Source: Escherichia coli
GTDB lineage: Bacteria > Pseudomonadota > Gammaproteobacteria > Enterobacterales > Enterobacteriaceae
DNA length: 64,000 bases
NCBI RefSeq assembly: GCF_044324785.1
Contig: NZ_CP172127.1
Reading direction: 5' to 3' (one strand)
The position numbers and the translations under genes are program-made. Of this stretch, positions 16,741 through 63,088 are shown piece by piece (position 1 is the stretch's first letter; the number at the start of each line of letters is the position of its first letter). Below the pieces are notes generated by a model. That model saw only the letters and a list, made by a program, of their open reading frames with translations, was not told the DNA's origin and ran no database searches.

Positions 16741-16776
16741 AATAAAAAAGGCCCCCCGATTTGGGAGGCCTTATTG
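16741..16776 (-). promoter_or_regulatory. pheA transcription attenuator (terminator hairpin between pheL and pheA)
   Basis: Minus strand reads CAATAAGGCCTCCCAAATCGGGGGGCCTTTTTTATT. Confidence 0.85.
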
Positions 16777-16818
16777 TTCGTCTTCGCATTCTGTTTCACA
16801 CGACGAAACGCCTCCCAT

Positions 16819-16866
16819 TCAGGGGAAGGTAAAAAAGAATGCGAAGAAAAACGGTGTGTGTTTCAT
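16819..16866 (-). CDS. pheL: pheA leader peptide (15 aa, seven Phe codons)
   Basis: Minus strand ATGAAACACACACCGTTTTTCTTCGCATTCTTTTTTACCTTCCCCTGA = [15 protein letters not shown]. Confidence 0.9.
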   Translation of the reverse strand: [15 protein letters not shown]

Positions 16867-16920
16867 GTTTGTTTCCTTAAGTGACTTCAGTACAGTACCC
16901 GTACTGTTTTCACGCTGTCA

Positions 16921-19434: not shown

Positions 19435-20162
19435 GTAAGCTGATTGTCCCGCAGTGGCCGCTGCCAAAAGGTGTTGCGGCCTGTAGCTCTACCCGTATCG
19501 GCGGCGTGAGCTTGCCGCCTTACGACTCTCTCAACCTTGGCGCTCATTGTGGTGATAACCCGGATCACGTTGAGGAGAATCGCAAGCGACTTTTTGCTGC
19601 GGGCAATTTGCCTTCTAAACCGGTCTGGCTTGAGCAGGTACACGGCAAAGATGTGCTTAAGCTTACTGGTGAACCTTATGCCTCAAAACGAGCAGATGCC
19701 TCTTATAGCAATACGCCCGGCACGGTTTGCGCAGTGATGACTGCCGACTGCCTCCCCGTGCTGTTTTGCAATCGAGCGGGAACGGAAGTCGCCGCCGCTC
19801 ATGCTGGCTGGCGTGGACTGTGCGCTGGCGTGTTGGAGGAGACGGTTTCCTGTTTTGCTGATAATCCGGAAAATATTCTCGCCTGGTTAGGGCCGGCAAT
19901 TGGTCCACGCGCGTTTGAAGTGGGGGCGGAGGTTCGCGAGGCGTTTATGGCAGTAGACGCCAAAGCGAGTACAGCTTTCATTCAGCATGGTGATAAGTAT
20001 CTGGCGGATATTTATCTCCTTGCCCGGCAGCGTCTGGCGAACGTCGGTGTCGAACAAATTTTCGGCGGCAACCGTTGTACATATACGGAAAATGAGACTT
20101 TCTTCTCTTATCGTCGCGACAAGACCACTGGTCGTATGGCAAGTTTCATTTGGCTGATATAA
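19431..20162 (+). CDS. pgeF: Peptidoglycan editing factor PgeF (YfiH)
   Basis: 243 aa; start overlaps rluD stop by 4 bp. Confidence 0.9.
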   Translation: MSKLIVPQWPLPKGVAACSSTRIGGVSLPPYDSLNLGAHCGDNPDHVEENRKRLFAAGNLPSKPVWLEQVHGKDVLKLTGEPYASKRADASYSNTPGTVCAVMTADCLPVLFCNRAGTEVAAAHAGWRGLCAGVLEETVSCFADNPENILAWLGPAIGPRAFEVGAEVREAFMAVDAKASTAFIQHGDKYLADIYLLARQRLANVGVEQIFGGNRCTYTENETFFSYRRDKTTGRMASFIWLI

Positions 20163-20224
20163 CCTAAAGAATCAAGACGATCCGGTACGCGTGATTTTCT
20201 TTTCACATTAATCTGGTCAATAAC

Positions 20225-20253
20225 CTTGAATAATTGAGGGATGACCTCATTTA
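20225..20253 (+). promoter_or_regulatory. Sigma-32 heat-shock promoter of clpB
   Basis: CTTGAAT, 13 nt spacer, CCTCATTTA. Confidence 0.7.
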
Positions 20254-20291
20254 ATCTCCAGTAGCAACTTTGATCCGTTATGGGAGGAGTT

Positions 20292-22865
20292 ATGCGTCTG
20301 GATCGTCTTACTAATAAATTCCAGCTTGCTCTTGCCGATGCCCAATCACTTGCACTCGGGCACGACAACCAATTCATCGAACCACTTCATTTAATGAGCG
20401 CCCTGCTGAATCAGGAAGGGGGTTCGGTTAGTCCTTTATTAACATCCGCTGGCATTAATGCTGGCCAGTTGCGCACAGATATCAATCAGGCATTAAATCG
20501 TTTACCGCAGGTTGAAGGTACTGGTGGTGATGTCCAGCCATCACAGGATCTGGTGCGCGTTCTTAATCTTTGCGACAAGTTGGCGCAAAAACGTGGTGAT
20601 AACTTTATCTCGTCAGAACTGTTCGTTCTGGCGGCACTTGAGTCTCGCGGCACGCTGGCCGACATCCTGAAAGCAGCAGGGGCGACCACCGCCAACATTA
20701 CTCAAGCGATTGAACAAATGCGTGGAGGTGAAAGCGTGAACGATCAAGGTGCTGAAGACCAACGTCAGGCTTTGAAAAAATATACCATCGACCTTACCGA
20801 ACGAGCCGAACAAGGCAAACTCGATCCGGTGATTGGTCGTGATGAAGAAATTCGCCGTACCATTCAGGTGCTGCAACGTCGTACTAAAAATAACCCGGTA
20901 CTGATTGGTGAACCAGGCGTCGGTAAAACTGCCATCGTTGAAGGTCTGGCGCAGCGTATCATCAACGGCGAAGTGCCGGAAGGGTTGAAAGGCCGCCGCG
21001 TACTGGCGCTGGATATGGGCGCGCTGGTGGCTGGGGCGAAATATCGCGGTGAGTTTGAAGAACGTTTAAAAGGCGTACTTAACGATCTTGCTAAACAGGA
21101 AGGCAACGTCATCCTGTTTATCGACGAATTACATACCATGGTCGGCGCGGGTAAAGCCGATGGCGCAATGGACGCCGGAAACATGCTGAAACCGGCGCTG
21201 GCGCGTGGTGAATTGCACTGCGTAGGTGCCACGACGCTTGACGAATATCGCCAGTACATCGAAAAAGATGCTGCGCTGGAGCGTCGTTTCCAGAAAGTGT
21301 TTGTTGCCGAGCCTTCTGTTGAAGACACCATTGCTATTCTGCGTGGCTTAAAAGAACGTTACGAACTGCACCACCATGTGCAAATTACTGACCCGGCAAT
21401 TGTTGCAGCTGCGACGTTGTCTCATCGCTACATTGCTGACCGTCAGCTGCCGGATAAAGCCATCGACCTGATCGATGAAGCAGCATCCAGCATTCGTATG
21501 CAGATTGACTCAAAACCAGAAGAACTCGACCGACTCGATCGTCGTATCATCCAGCTCAAACTGGAACAACAGGCGTTAATGAAAGAGTCTGATGAAGCCA
21601 GTAAAAAACGCCTGGATATGCTCAACGAAGAACTGAGCGACAAAGAACGTCAGTACTCCGAGTTAGAAGAAGAGTGGAAAGCAGAGAAAGCATCGCTTTC
21701 TGGTACACAGACCATTAAAGCGGAACTGGAACAGGCGAAAATCGCTATTGAACAGGCTCGCCGTGTGGGTGACCTGGCGCGGATGTCTGAACTGCAATAC
21801 GGCAAAATCCCGGAACTGGAAAAGCAACTGGAAGCCGCAACGCAGCTCGAAGGCAAAACTATGCGTCTGTTGCGTAATAAAGTGACCGACGCCGAAATTG
21901 CTGAAGTGCTGGCGCGTTGGACGGGGATTCCGGTTTCTCGCATGATGGAAAGCGAGCGCGAAAAACTGCTGCGTATGGAGCAAGAGCTGCACCATCGCGT
22001 TATTGGTCAGAACGAAGCGGTTGATGCGGTATCTAACGCTATTCGTCGTAGCCGTGCGGGGCTGGCGGATCCAAATCGCCCGATTGGTTCATTCCTGTTC
22101 CTCGGCCCAACGGGTGTGGGGAAAACTGAGCTTTGTAAGGCGCTGGCGAACTTTATGTTTGATAGCGACGAGGCGATGGTCCGTATCGATATGTCCGAGT
22201 TTATGGAGAAACACTCGGTGTCTCGTCTGGTTGGTGCGCCTCCGGGATATGTCGGTTATGAAGAAGGTGGCTACCTGACCGAAGCTGTGCGTCGTCGTCC
22301 GTATTCCGTCATCCTGCTGGATGAAGTGGAAAAAGCGCATCCGGATGTCTTCAACATTCTGTTGCAGGTACTGGATGATGGGCGTCTGACTGACGGGCAG
22401 GGGAGAACGGTCGACTTCCGTAATACGGTTGTCATTATGACCTCTAACCTCGGTTCCGATTTGATTCAGGAACGCTTCGGTGAACTGGATTATGCGCACA
22501 TGAAAGAGCTGGTGCTCGGTGTGGTAAGCCATAACTTCCGTCCGGAATTCATTAACCGTATCGATGAAGTGGTGGTCTTCCATCCGCTGGGTGAACAGCA
22601 CATTGCGTCGATTGCGCAGATTCAGTTGAAACGTCTGTATAAACGTCTGGAAGAACGTGGTTATGAAATCCACATTTCTGACGAGGCGCTGAAACTGCTG
22701 AGCGAGAACGGTTACGATCCGGTCTATGGTGCACGTCCTCTGAAACGTGCTATCCAGCAGCAGATCGAAAACCCGCTGGCACAGCAAATACTGTCTGGTG
22801 AATTGGTTCCGGGTAAAGTTATTCGCCTGGAAGTTAATGAAGACCGGATTGTCGCCGTCCAGTAA
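20292..22865 (+). CDS. clpB: Disaggregase chaperone ClpB (857 aa); internal GTG at 20736 is the ClpB-80 start
   Basis: [18 protein letters not shown]...; two AAA+ modules with Walker A GEPGVGKT and GPTGVGKT; the ORF-track start at 20280 is 4 codons too long. Confidence 0.95.
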
Positions 22866-23307: not shown

Positions 23308-24849
<1,542 letters not shown>

Positions 24850-24934
24850 CCTTAAAGAAGCGTTCTTTGTAGTGCTCACACAGATTGTCTGATAGAAAGT
24901 GAAAAGCAAGGCGTCTTGCGAAGCAGACTGATAC

Positions 24935-25010
24935 GTCCCCTTCGTCTAGAGGCCCAGGACACCGCCCTTTCACGGCGGTAACAGGGGTTCGAATCCCCTA
25001 GGGGACGCCA
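24935..25010 (+). tRNA. gltW: tRNA-Glu (UUC) in the 16S-23S spacer
   Basis: GTCCCCTTCGTCTAGAGGCCCAGGACACCGCCCTTTCACGGCGGTAACAGGGGTTCGAATCCCCTAGGGGACGCCA. Confidence 0.95.
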
Positions 25011-25194
25011 CTTGCTGGTTTGTGAGTGAAAGTCACCTGCCTTGATATCTCAAAACTCATCTTCGGGTGATGTTTGAGATATTTGCTCTTTAAAAATCTG
25101 GATCAAGCTGAAAATTGAAACACTGAACAACGAAAGTTGTTCGTGAGTCTCTCAAATTTTCGCAACTCTGAAGTGAAACATCTTCGGGTTGTGA

Positions 25195-28099
<2,905 letters not shown>

Positions 28100-28191
28100 A
28101 CAACGCCGAAGATGTTTTGGCGGATGAGAGAAGATTTTCAGCCTGATACAGATTAAATCAGAACGCAGAAGCGGTCTGATAAAACAGAATT

Positions 28192-28311
28192 TGCCTGGCG
28201 GCCGTAGCGCGGTGGTCCCACCTGACCCCATGCCGAACTCAGAAGTGAAACGCCGTAGCGCCGATGGTAGTGTGGGGTCTCCCCATGCGAGAGTAGGGAA
28301 CTGCCAGGCAT
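28192..28311 (+). rRNA. rrfG: 5S ribosomal RNA (rrnG operon)
   Basis: TGCCTGGCGGCCGTAGCGCGGTGG...GGGAACTGCCAGGCAT, 120 nt. Confidence 0.97.
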
Positions 28312-45490: not shown

Positions 45491-46446
45491 TGAAGCAACT
45501 TTGGTTTGCCATGTCATTAGTGACAGGTAGCCTGTTATTCTCTGCTAACGCCTCGGCCACTCCCGCGTCCGGGGCGTTATTACAGCAGATGAACCTGGCC
45601 AGTCAGTCACTGAATTACGAGCTGTCATTTATCAGCATCAATAAACAGGGTGTTGAGTCTCTGCGTTATCGACATGCACGCCTCGATAACCGTCCTCTTG
45701 CACAATTGTTGCAAATGGATGGCCCGCGCCGGGAAGTGGTACAGCGCGGCAATGAAATCAGCTATTTTGAACCGGGACTTGAACCGTTCACGCTTAATGG
45801 CGATTACATTGTTGATTCTCTGCCATCGCTCATCTATACCGATTTCAAACGCCTTTCTCCTTACTACGACTTTATCTCCGTCGGGCGCACGCGTATTGCT
45901 GATCGTCTTTGCGAAGTCATTCGCGTGGTTGCCCGAGATGGTACACGCTACAGCTACATCGTGTGGATGGACACCGAATCGAAATTACCGATGCGGGTTG
46001 ATCTCCTTGATCGCGATGGTGAAACGCTGGAACAATTTCGCGTGATTGCTTTTAACGTCAATCAGGATATCGGCAGCAGTATGCAGACGCTGGCGAAGGC
46101 AAATTTGCCGCCGTTGCTTTCTGTTCCTGTAGGTGAAAAAGCTAAATTCAGCTGGACGCCAACCTGGTTGCCACAGGGTTTTAGCGAAGTTTCCAGTAGT
46201 CGACGTCCGCTACCGACGATGGACAACATGCCTATCGAATCACGTCTCTATTCCGACGGATTATTCAGCTTCTCGGTAAACGTTAACCGCGCTACGCCAT
46301 CGAGCACCGATCAGATGTTGCGCACCGGGCGCAGAACCGTCAGTACAAGCGTACGTGATAACGCCGAAATCACCATTGTCGGTGAACTGCCGCCGCAAAC
46401 GGCGAAACGCATTGCCGAGAATATTAAGTTCGGGGCAGCGCAATGA
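45490..46446 (+). CDS. rseB: Sigma-E regulatory protein RseB
   Basis: 318 aa with signal peptide; stop/start overlap with rseA. Confidence 0.95.
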   Translation: MKQLWFAMSLVTGSLLFSANASATPASGALLQQMNLASQSLNYELSFISINKQGVESLRYRHARLDNRPLAQLLQMDGPRREVVQRGNEISYFEPGLEPFTLNGDYIVDSLPSLIYTDFKRLSPYYDFISVGRTRIADRLCEVIRVVARDGTRYSYIVWMDTESKLPMRVDLLDRDGETLEQFRVIAFNVNQDIGSSMQTLAKANLPPLLSVPVGEKAKFSWTPTWLPQGFSEVSSSRRPLPTMDNMPIESRLYSDGLFSFSVNVNRATPSSTDQMLRTGRRTVSTSVRDNAEITIVGELPPQTAKRIAENIKFGAAQ

Positions 46447-46922
46447 TCAAAGAGTGGGCTACCGTCGTCTCCTGGGAAAACGGGCAGGCGCTGGTTAGTT
46501 GTGATGTTAAAGCCTCATGCAGCAGCTGCGCTTCACGCGCCGGTTGCGGTAGCCGCGTGTTGAATAAACTTGGCCCGCAAACCACGCATACCATTGTCGT
46601 ACCCTGTGATGAGCCGTTAGTGCCGGGGCAAAAAGTGGAATTGGGGATCGCCGAAGGCAGCCTGCTTAGCTCCGCATTACTGGTTTATATGTCGCCGCTG
46701 GTGGGATTATTTCTCATCGCTTCGCTATTTCAGCTACTCTTTGCTTCAGATATTGCAGCATTATGCGGTGCGATTCTCGGTGGCGTTGGTGGATTCCTGA
46801 TTGCACGTGGCTGCTCTCGAAAGTTTGCTGCCCGGTCTGAATGGCAACCGATCATCTTAAGCGTGGCATTGCCGCCTGGCCTTGTGCGATTTGAAACATC
46901 TTCGGAAGACGCGAGCCAGTGA
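46443..46922 (+). CDS. rseC: Sigma-E regulatory protein RseC
   Basis: 159 aa, membrane protein with Cys-rich N-terminus. Confidence 0.9.
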   Translation: MIKEWATVVSWENGQALVSCDVKASCSSCASRAGCGSRVLNKLGPQTTHTIVVPCDEPLVPGQKVELGIAEGSLLSSALLVYMSPLVGLFLIASLFQLLFASDIAALCGAILGGVGGFLIARGCSRKFAARSEWQPIILSVALPPGLVRFETSSEDASQ

Positions 46923-47119
46923 TTTCACTGGCTTTGTTGCATTTTGCATAACAAATGCGAGGACGTTTCCAGATACCACAATCCATACGGTATGAACATT
47001 TCCTCGCCTCAATGTTGTAGTGTAGAATGCGGCGTTTCTATTAATACAGACGTTAAGCTCAGAACAGCGACTTCTAAAAGCCTGGTTAACCGGGCATTAA
47101 GGCACAATAATCATACTTT

Positions 47120-48919
<1,800 letters not shown>

Positions 48920-49909: not shown

Positions 49910-50151
49910 TAGCCCATCTTCGTTCACGTTGTCGCCGTTATGGCGACAACGTGAATTATTTATGAGATAAATCTCCCGTGGCTAACGACATCCCCCGTCG
50001 TTGTGTATAGAATATTCCCCCGAAGTTTAAGGTTGGCACCTCCAGGTTGCCACGGCACACGAAACAGCGTTGGTCCCCATATACCGGTAAACTGAAACTG
50101 CAGCGAAGCAGTTAGCAGAGCCATGTATATCAGGTCTGTTTCGTGTGCTGA

Positions 50152-51764
<1,613 letters not shown>

Positions 51765-53627: not shown

Positions 53628-53653
53628 AAATAATACCGTTCTCTTTATAAAGT

Positions 53654-53692
53654 AAAACCCCCGAACTGGTAAGGAACGGGGGTTTTACTTTT
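53654..53692. terminator. acpS terminator, bidirectional
   Basis: AAAACCCCCGAACTGGTAAGGAACGGGGGTTTTACTTTTT. Confidence 0.8.
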
Positions 53693-54048
53693 TAACTTTA
53701 ATTTTGTGCAGCACACGATTCCAACGGAAATGATTATGGATCAATTTCGTTATCCTGTACAAGCAACTTGCAATCTCTGACATAAAAAACGCGAGCCTTT
53801 ACGAAGAAATCGACATTGATGAAAAGATTAACGTGACCGCTTTTTGATAAGTACATTAAAATCGGTTTCGTTATTGGCAATTTTGCTGTGCTTTACACCA
53901 TGCCACTGAATTCCCCCATTGAAACGAGTGGTGTCGTCAAAGCTCTGGTGTGGAGTGCAGCACTCGATTCCAATAACTCGCACGTTCAGTTTTGGGGAGA
54001 TGTAAGGGCTAATCTGAACGGCTGCATTCCTTGTTTAAGGAAAAACGA

Positions 54049-62904: not shown

Positions 62905-63088
62905 AGTGGCTCATTCACCGACTTATGTCAGCCCCTTCGGGACGTGCTACATAAAATTCGAATGACGCACAACAAGGTGCCTGCCGTCCAACTTCTGATA
63001 TCAGCGTAGCTATATCAACCATCGGGCGAAACGTCGAGTTAGGCACCGCCTTATTCCATAACAAAGCCGGGTAATTCCCGGCTTTGTT
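62905..63088 (+). ncRNA. glmY: Small regulatory RNA GlmY (GlmZ decoy controlling glmS)
   Basis: Starts about 12 nt downstream of the sigma-54 -12 element at AGTGGCTCATTCACC; ends at terminator AAAGCCGGGTAATTCCCGGCTTTGTTGT; position between purL and glrK. Confidence 0.8.

Follow-up and report, generated by a model that had tools for sequence, protein, structure and literature searches.

A known second translation start at codon 149 of clpB in another Escherichia coli strain, with patchy conservation of the start codon among proteobacteria

The gene considered here occupies positions 20292..22865 (+) of the 64,000-nucleotide stretch of Escherichia coli DNA that was analysed (the window) and consists of 857 codons plus stop, as judged from the list of open reading frames, RefSeq, Pfam and the mass of the product. 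Its predicted product of 857 amino acids, ClpB95, has a mass of 95.6 kDa. Pfam matches comprise Clp_N, two AAA modules, AAA_lid_9, AAA_2 and ClpB_D2-small, and residues 1-163 are colinear, end to end, with solved E. coli ClpB chains (E 3.5e-99); these domains and this colinearity, together with the RefSeq annotation, identify the gene as clpB, which codes for the heat-shock disaggregase. A single matching copy, annotated clpB, is present in 5425 of 5426 complete E. coli genomes. An 8.7-kb stretch of the window is 98.6% identical to the compared E. coli locus versus 93.5% to E. albertii, which marks the window as E. coli, and the gene order is bamD, rluD, yfiH, clpB and rRNA operon.

The RefSeq start of clpB in matching E. 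coli (98.6-99.4% identical) maps to the ATG at 20292-20294 (+), which is also evident from direct reading of the sequence. This primary start codon is preceded by the Shine-Dalgarno (SD) sequence GGAGG at 20283..20287 (+), recognised by direct reading and by its duplex energy. The SD score was taken as the duplex energy of the region from -20 to -4 upstream of a start codon with the anti-SD at the 3' end of 16S rRNA, ACCUCCUUA, and amounts to -10.2 kcal/mol for the annotated start. The mechanical list of open reading frames gives a slightly longer frame (20280..22865, +, 861 aa), lengthened by an in-frame ATG at 20280-20282 (+), four codons 5' of the annotated start; this ATG abuts the primary GGAGG, is without an SD of its own and is unused by RefSeq.

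Several further elements surround the gene. A putative promoter-like motif was noticed by eye at 20225-20253 (+), about 40 nt 5' of the clpB ATG, consisting of CTTGAA (20225-20230), 14 nt and CCTCATTTA (20245-20253); a sigma-70 scan gave no match there, and we take the motif to resemble the heat-shock (sigma-32) promoter consensus. An Rfam match to the RyfD sRNA family at 20173-20311 (+), scoring 125 bits against a gathering score of 42, extends from the clpB leader 20 nt into the coding sequence; a SEC-seq paper describes RyfD as a neighbour of clpB for which neither a partner nor an ORF is known. Directly 3' of clpB lies a complete rRNA operon (23308-28309, +) with 16S rRNA (23308-24849, +), a tRNA (24935-25007, +; tRNA-Glu in the matching RefSeq record), a StyR-44 match in the rRNA spacer (25088-25187, +), 23S rRNA (25195-28099, +) and 5S rRNA (28194-28309, +). 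Elsewhere in the window, Rfam matches above the gathering score were obtained for the Phe leader (16742-16867, -), the AsrC antisense RNA of rseC (46407-47238, -), the rncO regulatory element (50022-50236, +), the OhsC antitoxin sRNA (53649-53725, -) and the GlmY sRNA (62905-63052, +), all of which are expected in this region of E. coli.

Within clpB, the earlier note had pointed to an in-frame GTG at codon 149 with an SD-like sequence before it, and direct reading of positions 20200 to 20900 bears this out to the base: counting 444 nucleotides on from 20292 places codon 149 at 20736-20738 (+), a position further supported by SD scoring and the literature. The 12 bases before it (20724-20735) read GGAGGTGAAAGC. 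They begin with the internal SD GGAGGT (20724..20729, +), formed by Gly145 GGA and Gly146 GGT and supported by sequence reading, SD scoring and codon counts; its GGAGG (20724-20728) is separated from the GTG by a spacer of 7 nt (20729-20735). The frame nested in clpB from this codon (20736..22865, +) would encode the computed product ClpB80 of 709 amino acids and 79.9 kDa, beginning fMet-Asn-Asp-Gln. Predicted masses of 95.6 and 79.9 kDa agree with the names ClpB95 and ClpB80.

The position of the internal start coincides with a boundary in the protein. Pfam places both stretches of the Clp_N match N-terminal of residue 149 and the first AAA module C-terminal of it, with the best AAA stretch at residues 203-336. 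Furthermore, the crystallised N domain (PDB 1KHY) comprises 148 residues, which correspond to ClpB residues 1-148. Codons 1-148 (20292..20735, +), encoding the N-terminal domain and the start of the linker by both Pfam Clp_N and PDB 1KHY, thus belong to ClpB95 only; ClpB80 is without exactly these residues and keeps both AAA+ modules.

All in-frame internal ATG, GTG and TTG codons of clpB (n=50) were scored in the same way as the annotated start. With -10.6 kcal/mol, GTG149 ranks first of the 50, the runner-up having -6.4, and its SD is slightly stronger than that of the annotated clpB start. Counting both strands, the window holds 5981 NTG triplets, and only 0.25% of them reach this energy; a set of 50 codons would accordingly be expected to contain about 0.13 such sites. 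The 2574-nt coding sequence has a single GGAGG, owing to the use at Gly145 of GGA, the rarest glycine codon of the gene (3 of 63 Gly codons). It is clear that the arrangement of the internal SD and GTG149 did not arise by chance.

RNA folding was considered as a further determinant of the site. The segment from -30 to +30 around the internal start is less structured than 89% of clpB positions; the accessibility over 25 nt is unremarkable, and the idea that unusual openness determines the site was rejected because the 25-nt unpaired probability lies only at the 63rd percentile. It is the strength of the SD, not openness, that sets the internal site apart. In the minimum free energy (MFE) fold of 100 nt (-24.5 kcal/mol, z = -2.16), the internal SD is covered by a predicted hairpin at 20686-20730 (+), in which the upstream CCACCGCCA (20686-20694) pairs with UGGAGGUG (20723-20730), and the probability of the SD being unpaired is 0.17. 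This site would thus not stand out on structure prediction alone. The pairs of the hairpin are kept only in Escherichia, Citrobacter and Enterobacter, whose sequences hardly vary, and not in the other lineages that have GTG with an SD (mean 3.25 of 7 pairs kept, versus 2.13 in the rest). No temperature response of the SD pairing was predicted: with three sizes of context, P(unpaired) lay within 0.17-0.31 at 30-46 °C. The idea that the internal SD forms part of an RNA thermometer or a structural switch is accordingly not supported, and the hairpin is not proposed as a regulator, given its restriction to the three closest genera and its constant predicted occupancy over 30-46 °C.

A second candidate for the start of the short isoform is the in-frame ATG of Met143 (20718..20720, +), which lies close to GTG149. 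As a start codon, ATG is stronger than GTG, and the resulting product of 80.5 kDa would be indistinguishable from one of 79.9 kDa on a gel; moreover, Met143 was the choice of an automated caller in Ribo-RET data from Salmonella (PMC11005335). This ATG, however, has no SD-like sequence upstream and does not figure among the 12 codons with the best SD scores, so that its energy must be weaker than -3.7 kcal/mol. A further observation comes from S. Typhimurium, in which mutation of the Met143 ATG leaves both ClpB isoforms in place, and only the chromosomal change of GTG-445 to CTT removes the short one, leaving the long form alone (PMC11005335). A start at Met143 instead of GTG149 is therefore extremely unlikely.

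The 71 nt centred on the internal start are identical (71/71) to those of E. coli K-12, NEB5-alpha and O157:H7, and the 32-nt core comprising SD and GTG is found without mismatch in 5399 of the 5426 complete E. coli genomes, 26 clpB-bearing genomes having no mismatch-free match to it. It was in K-12 that the two starts were characterised (Squires et al. 1991; Park et al. 1993; cited in PMC6941012 and PMC6168691). Reviewing these two studies together with Nagy 2010, the citing articles name GUG at position 149 as the alternative start and describe ClpB80 as being without the substrate-interacting N domain. E. coli clpB is also counted among three genes in which the use of an internal start besides the primary one has long been known to produce two isoforms (10.1101/520783). 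The local identity with K-12, this literature, the mass of 79.9 kDa and the match of 1KHY to residues 1-148 uphold the statement of the earlier note that the GTG is the known second start yielding ClpB80 devoid of its N domain. A nested product within one gene, as that note also held, agrees with the 709-aa in-frame reading frame and with the loss of the short form in the Salmonella GTG-445 to CTT mutant (PMC11005335). Initiation profiling, which had been suggested as a check, is already published: Ribo-RET with retapamulin gave a well-defined initiation peak at the clpB internal start in E. coli BW25113 (K) and BL21 (B) (10.1101/520783).

The same experiments bear on the origin of the 80-kDa form. 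It could in principle be translated from a separate internal transcript, as has been proposed for Leptospira clpB (PMC6941012), or be cut from ClpB95 by proteolysis, the site being located in an interdomain linker, where proteases often cut. Against this, a point mutation of the GTG eliminates the short form in Salmonella (PMC11005335), and initiating ribosomes have been reported at the clpB internal site by Ribo-RET (10.1101/520783). In the Salmonella study the alternative starts lie within known transcripts and the differences were ascribed to translation (PMC11005335). Likewise, a scan of 20100-20800 for sigma-70-like promoters, although a weak test, found none, in agreement with an origin in translation rather than transcription. 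An internal transcript or linker proteolysis in place of internal initiation is thus most improbable.

The conservation of the start was followed in a scan of 80 clpB loci from Gamma- and Betaproteobacteria, of which 79 orthologues served for the amino-acid view and 76 other genes for the codon tests. As amino acids, Arg144-Gly145-Gly146 and Val149 are nearly invariant. GTG at codon 149 is not enriched among the 76 genes, being found in 36 versus 35.7 expected from the valine codon usage of each gene (z = 0.07), and the idea of selection on GTG149 across species was rejected on these figures. The codon and the SD nevertheless occur together more often than expected: GTG149 is present in 15 of 21 genes with a strong SD versus 21 of 55 with a weak one (Fisher P = 0.011, phylogeny ignored), and GGA or GGG at codon 145 is combined with GTG at codon 149 in 13 genes versus 5.85 expected (P about 0.005, phylogeny ignored), both P values being only indicative because they overcount related genomes. 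Lineages with the latter combination include Escherichia/Citrobacter/Enterobacter, a member of the Pasteurellaceae, Methylococcaceae, Methylophaga, Xanthomonas, Alcanivorax and others. In Photorhabdus, one of two Vibrio species, two of three Shewanella loci, all Pseudomonas and one of two Stutzerimonas species, codon 149 is GTT, GTC or ATT, so that no start is possible at that codon. The internal start is thus patchy at the level of codons despite the conservation of Val149, and is not a universal feature of clpB.

These data raise the question whether GGAGG and GTG are simply a by-product of encoding a conserved Arg-Gly-Gly-x-x-Val motif, with no initiation in the present strain. The near-invariance of Gly145, Gly146 and Val149 among the 79 orthologues and the frequency of GTG149, which equals the expectation from codon usage in 76 species, would both be accounted for in this way. 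The use of the rarest glycine codon for the sole GGAGG of the coding sequence would not, nor would the excess of GGA or GGG at codon 145 jointly with GTG149. In addition, initiation has been reported experimentally at a site whose surrounding 71 nt are the same as here (10.1101/520783), and a mere by-product of coding is hardly credible.

Internal initiation must also be weighed against a role of the same sequence in elongation. Located exactly at the domain boundary defined by Pfam and PDB 1KHY, the internal SD-like sequence might serve mainly to make ribosomes pause for co-translational folding of the N domain, initiation being incidental. Elongation pausing induced by SD-like sequences is an idea found in the literature, and SD-dependent pausing has been disputed as an artefact of profiling. 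Pausing leaves the properly spaced start codon and the co-occurrence of GTG and SD unexplained, and the short isoform is functional according to work cited in PMC6941012; as the main role of the site, it is considered very unlikely.

Initiation at GTG149 remains the preferred reading, in which a single clpB mRNA would carry two in-frame translation starts. The 30S subunits would bind either at the primary SD and ATG (20283-20294) or at the internal SD GGAGG (20724-20728), and binding at the latter would align the GTG at 20736 with the P site. GTG start codons are decoded by fMet-tRNA. With fMet inserted at this codon, the second product would be Met followed by residues 150-857, that is, the 79.9-kDa ClpB80 starting with Met-Asn-Asp-Gln. 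Besides both AAA+ modules, it would retain the middle domain and the C-terminal domain, and would lack the substrate-binding N domain (residues 1-148). Going by the cited literature, ClpB80 and ClpB95 join in mixed hexamers, which are better at reactivating aggregates than either form alone. Such hetero-oligomers have been described as having higher reactivation activity (Squires 1991, Park 1993 and Nagy 2010, as reviewed in PMC6168691 and PMC6941012), and a mix of ClpB95 and ClpB80 is reported in PMC6941012 as the most efficient for protein disaggregation after heat stress.

We are highly confident that clpB is translated from two in-frame starts on one mRNA into ClpB95 and ClpB80. The codon, its SD, their spacing, the statistical exceptionality of the site, its identity with K-12 and its coincidence with the N-domain boundary are all properties of the sequence itself; ribosome initiation at the GTG, the requirement for the GTG and the cooperation of the isoforms come from literature on other strains and on orthologues. 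Given the identical local sequence, the present strain would be expected to behave like K-12. This is the ClpB95/ClpB80 dual start already described for E. coli, and nothing at the site is new; as textbook knowledge of E. coli since the early 1990s, its rediscovery in another strain adds nothing. It does illustrate that one clpB gene can stand for two proteins, of which standard annotation pipelines list the long form only.

Compared with known systems, the closest is the clpB dual start of E. coli K-12 (GUG codon 149), with the same gene, codon, 71-nt sequence, product sizes and N-domain boundary, and no difference at the site itself. The ClpB-L/ClpB-S pair of S. Typhimurium depends for its short form on the orthologous GTG at nucleotide 445 (codon 149) and has, as here, a nearby Met143, which is not used in Salmonella; it differs in belonging to another genus, and the Salmonella short form is about ninefold less abundant (PMC11005335). 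In E. coli infB (IF2 isoforms) and mrcB, an internal SD and an in-frame start likewise give an N-terminally shorter isoform detected by Ribo-RET (10.1101/520783), although these are other proteins for which truncation has another functional consequence. Mycobacterium tuberculosis also has two isoforms, ClpB and ClpB-deltaN, with an internal GTG at position 149 (PMC6168691), but belongs to a distant lineage, and the article equates conservation of Val149 with conservation of the start. Its description of the internal start as 'highly conserved', which was drawn from a protein alignment, needs a caveat, since it is the amino acid Val149 that is conserved and not the codon. Herein lies a small addition of the present analysis: the claimed conservation of the start across bacteria rests on the amino acid, and in proteobacteria the codon is patchy.

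The loci at which the codon aligned to 20736 is GTT, GTC or ATT (L005, L012, L013, L015, L052, L060, L062, L063 and L069) have weak SD scores and stem from Photorhabdus, Vibrio hannami, Shewanella (two loci), Stutzerimonas xanthomarina and Pseudomonas (all four loci). In our reading, the Gly-Gly-x-x-Val linker may stand one synonymous step away from an SD plus start, a state that some lineages, enterics included, would have fixed. More tentatively, and on balance doubtful, the internal start could be lineage-specific, not ancestral but repeatedly gained via the Arg-Gly-Gly-x-x-Val linker, because a single synonymous change turns GGN-GGN into an SD; additionally or alternatively, the hairpin between CCACCGCCA and the SD could tune the ratio of ClpB80 to ClpB95 in Escherichia, Citrobacter and Enterobacter. 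If the start is indeed lineage-specific, those Pseudomonas, Vibrio and Photorhabdus with GTC or GTT would make no ClpB80 from this site.
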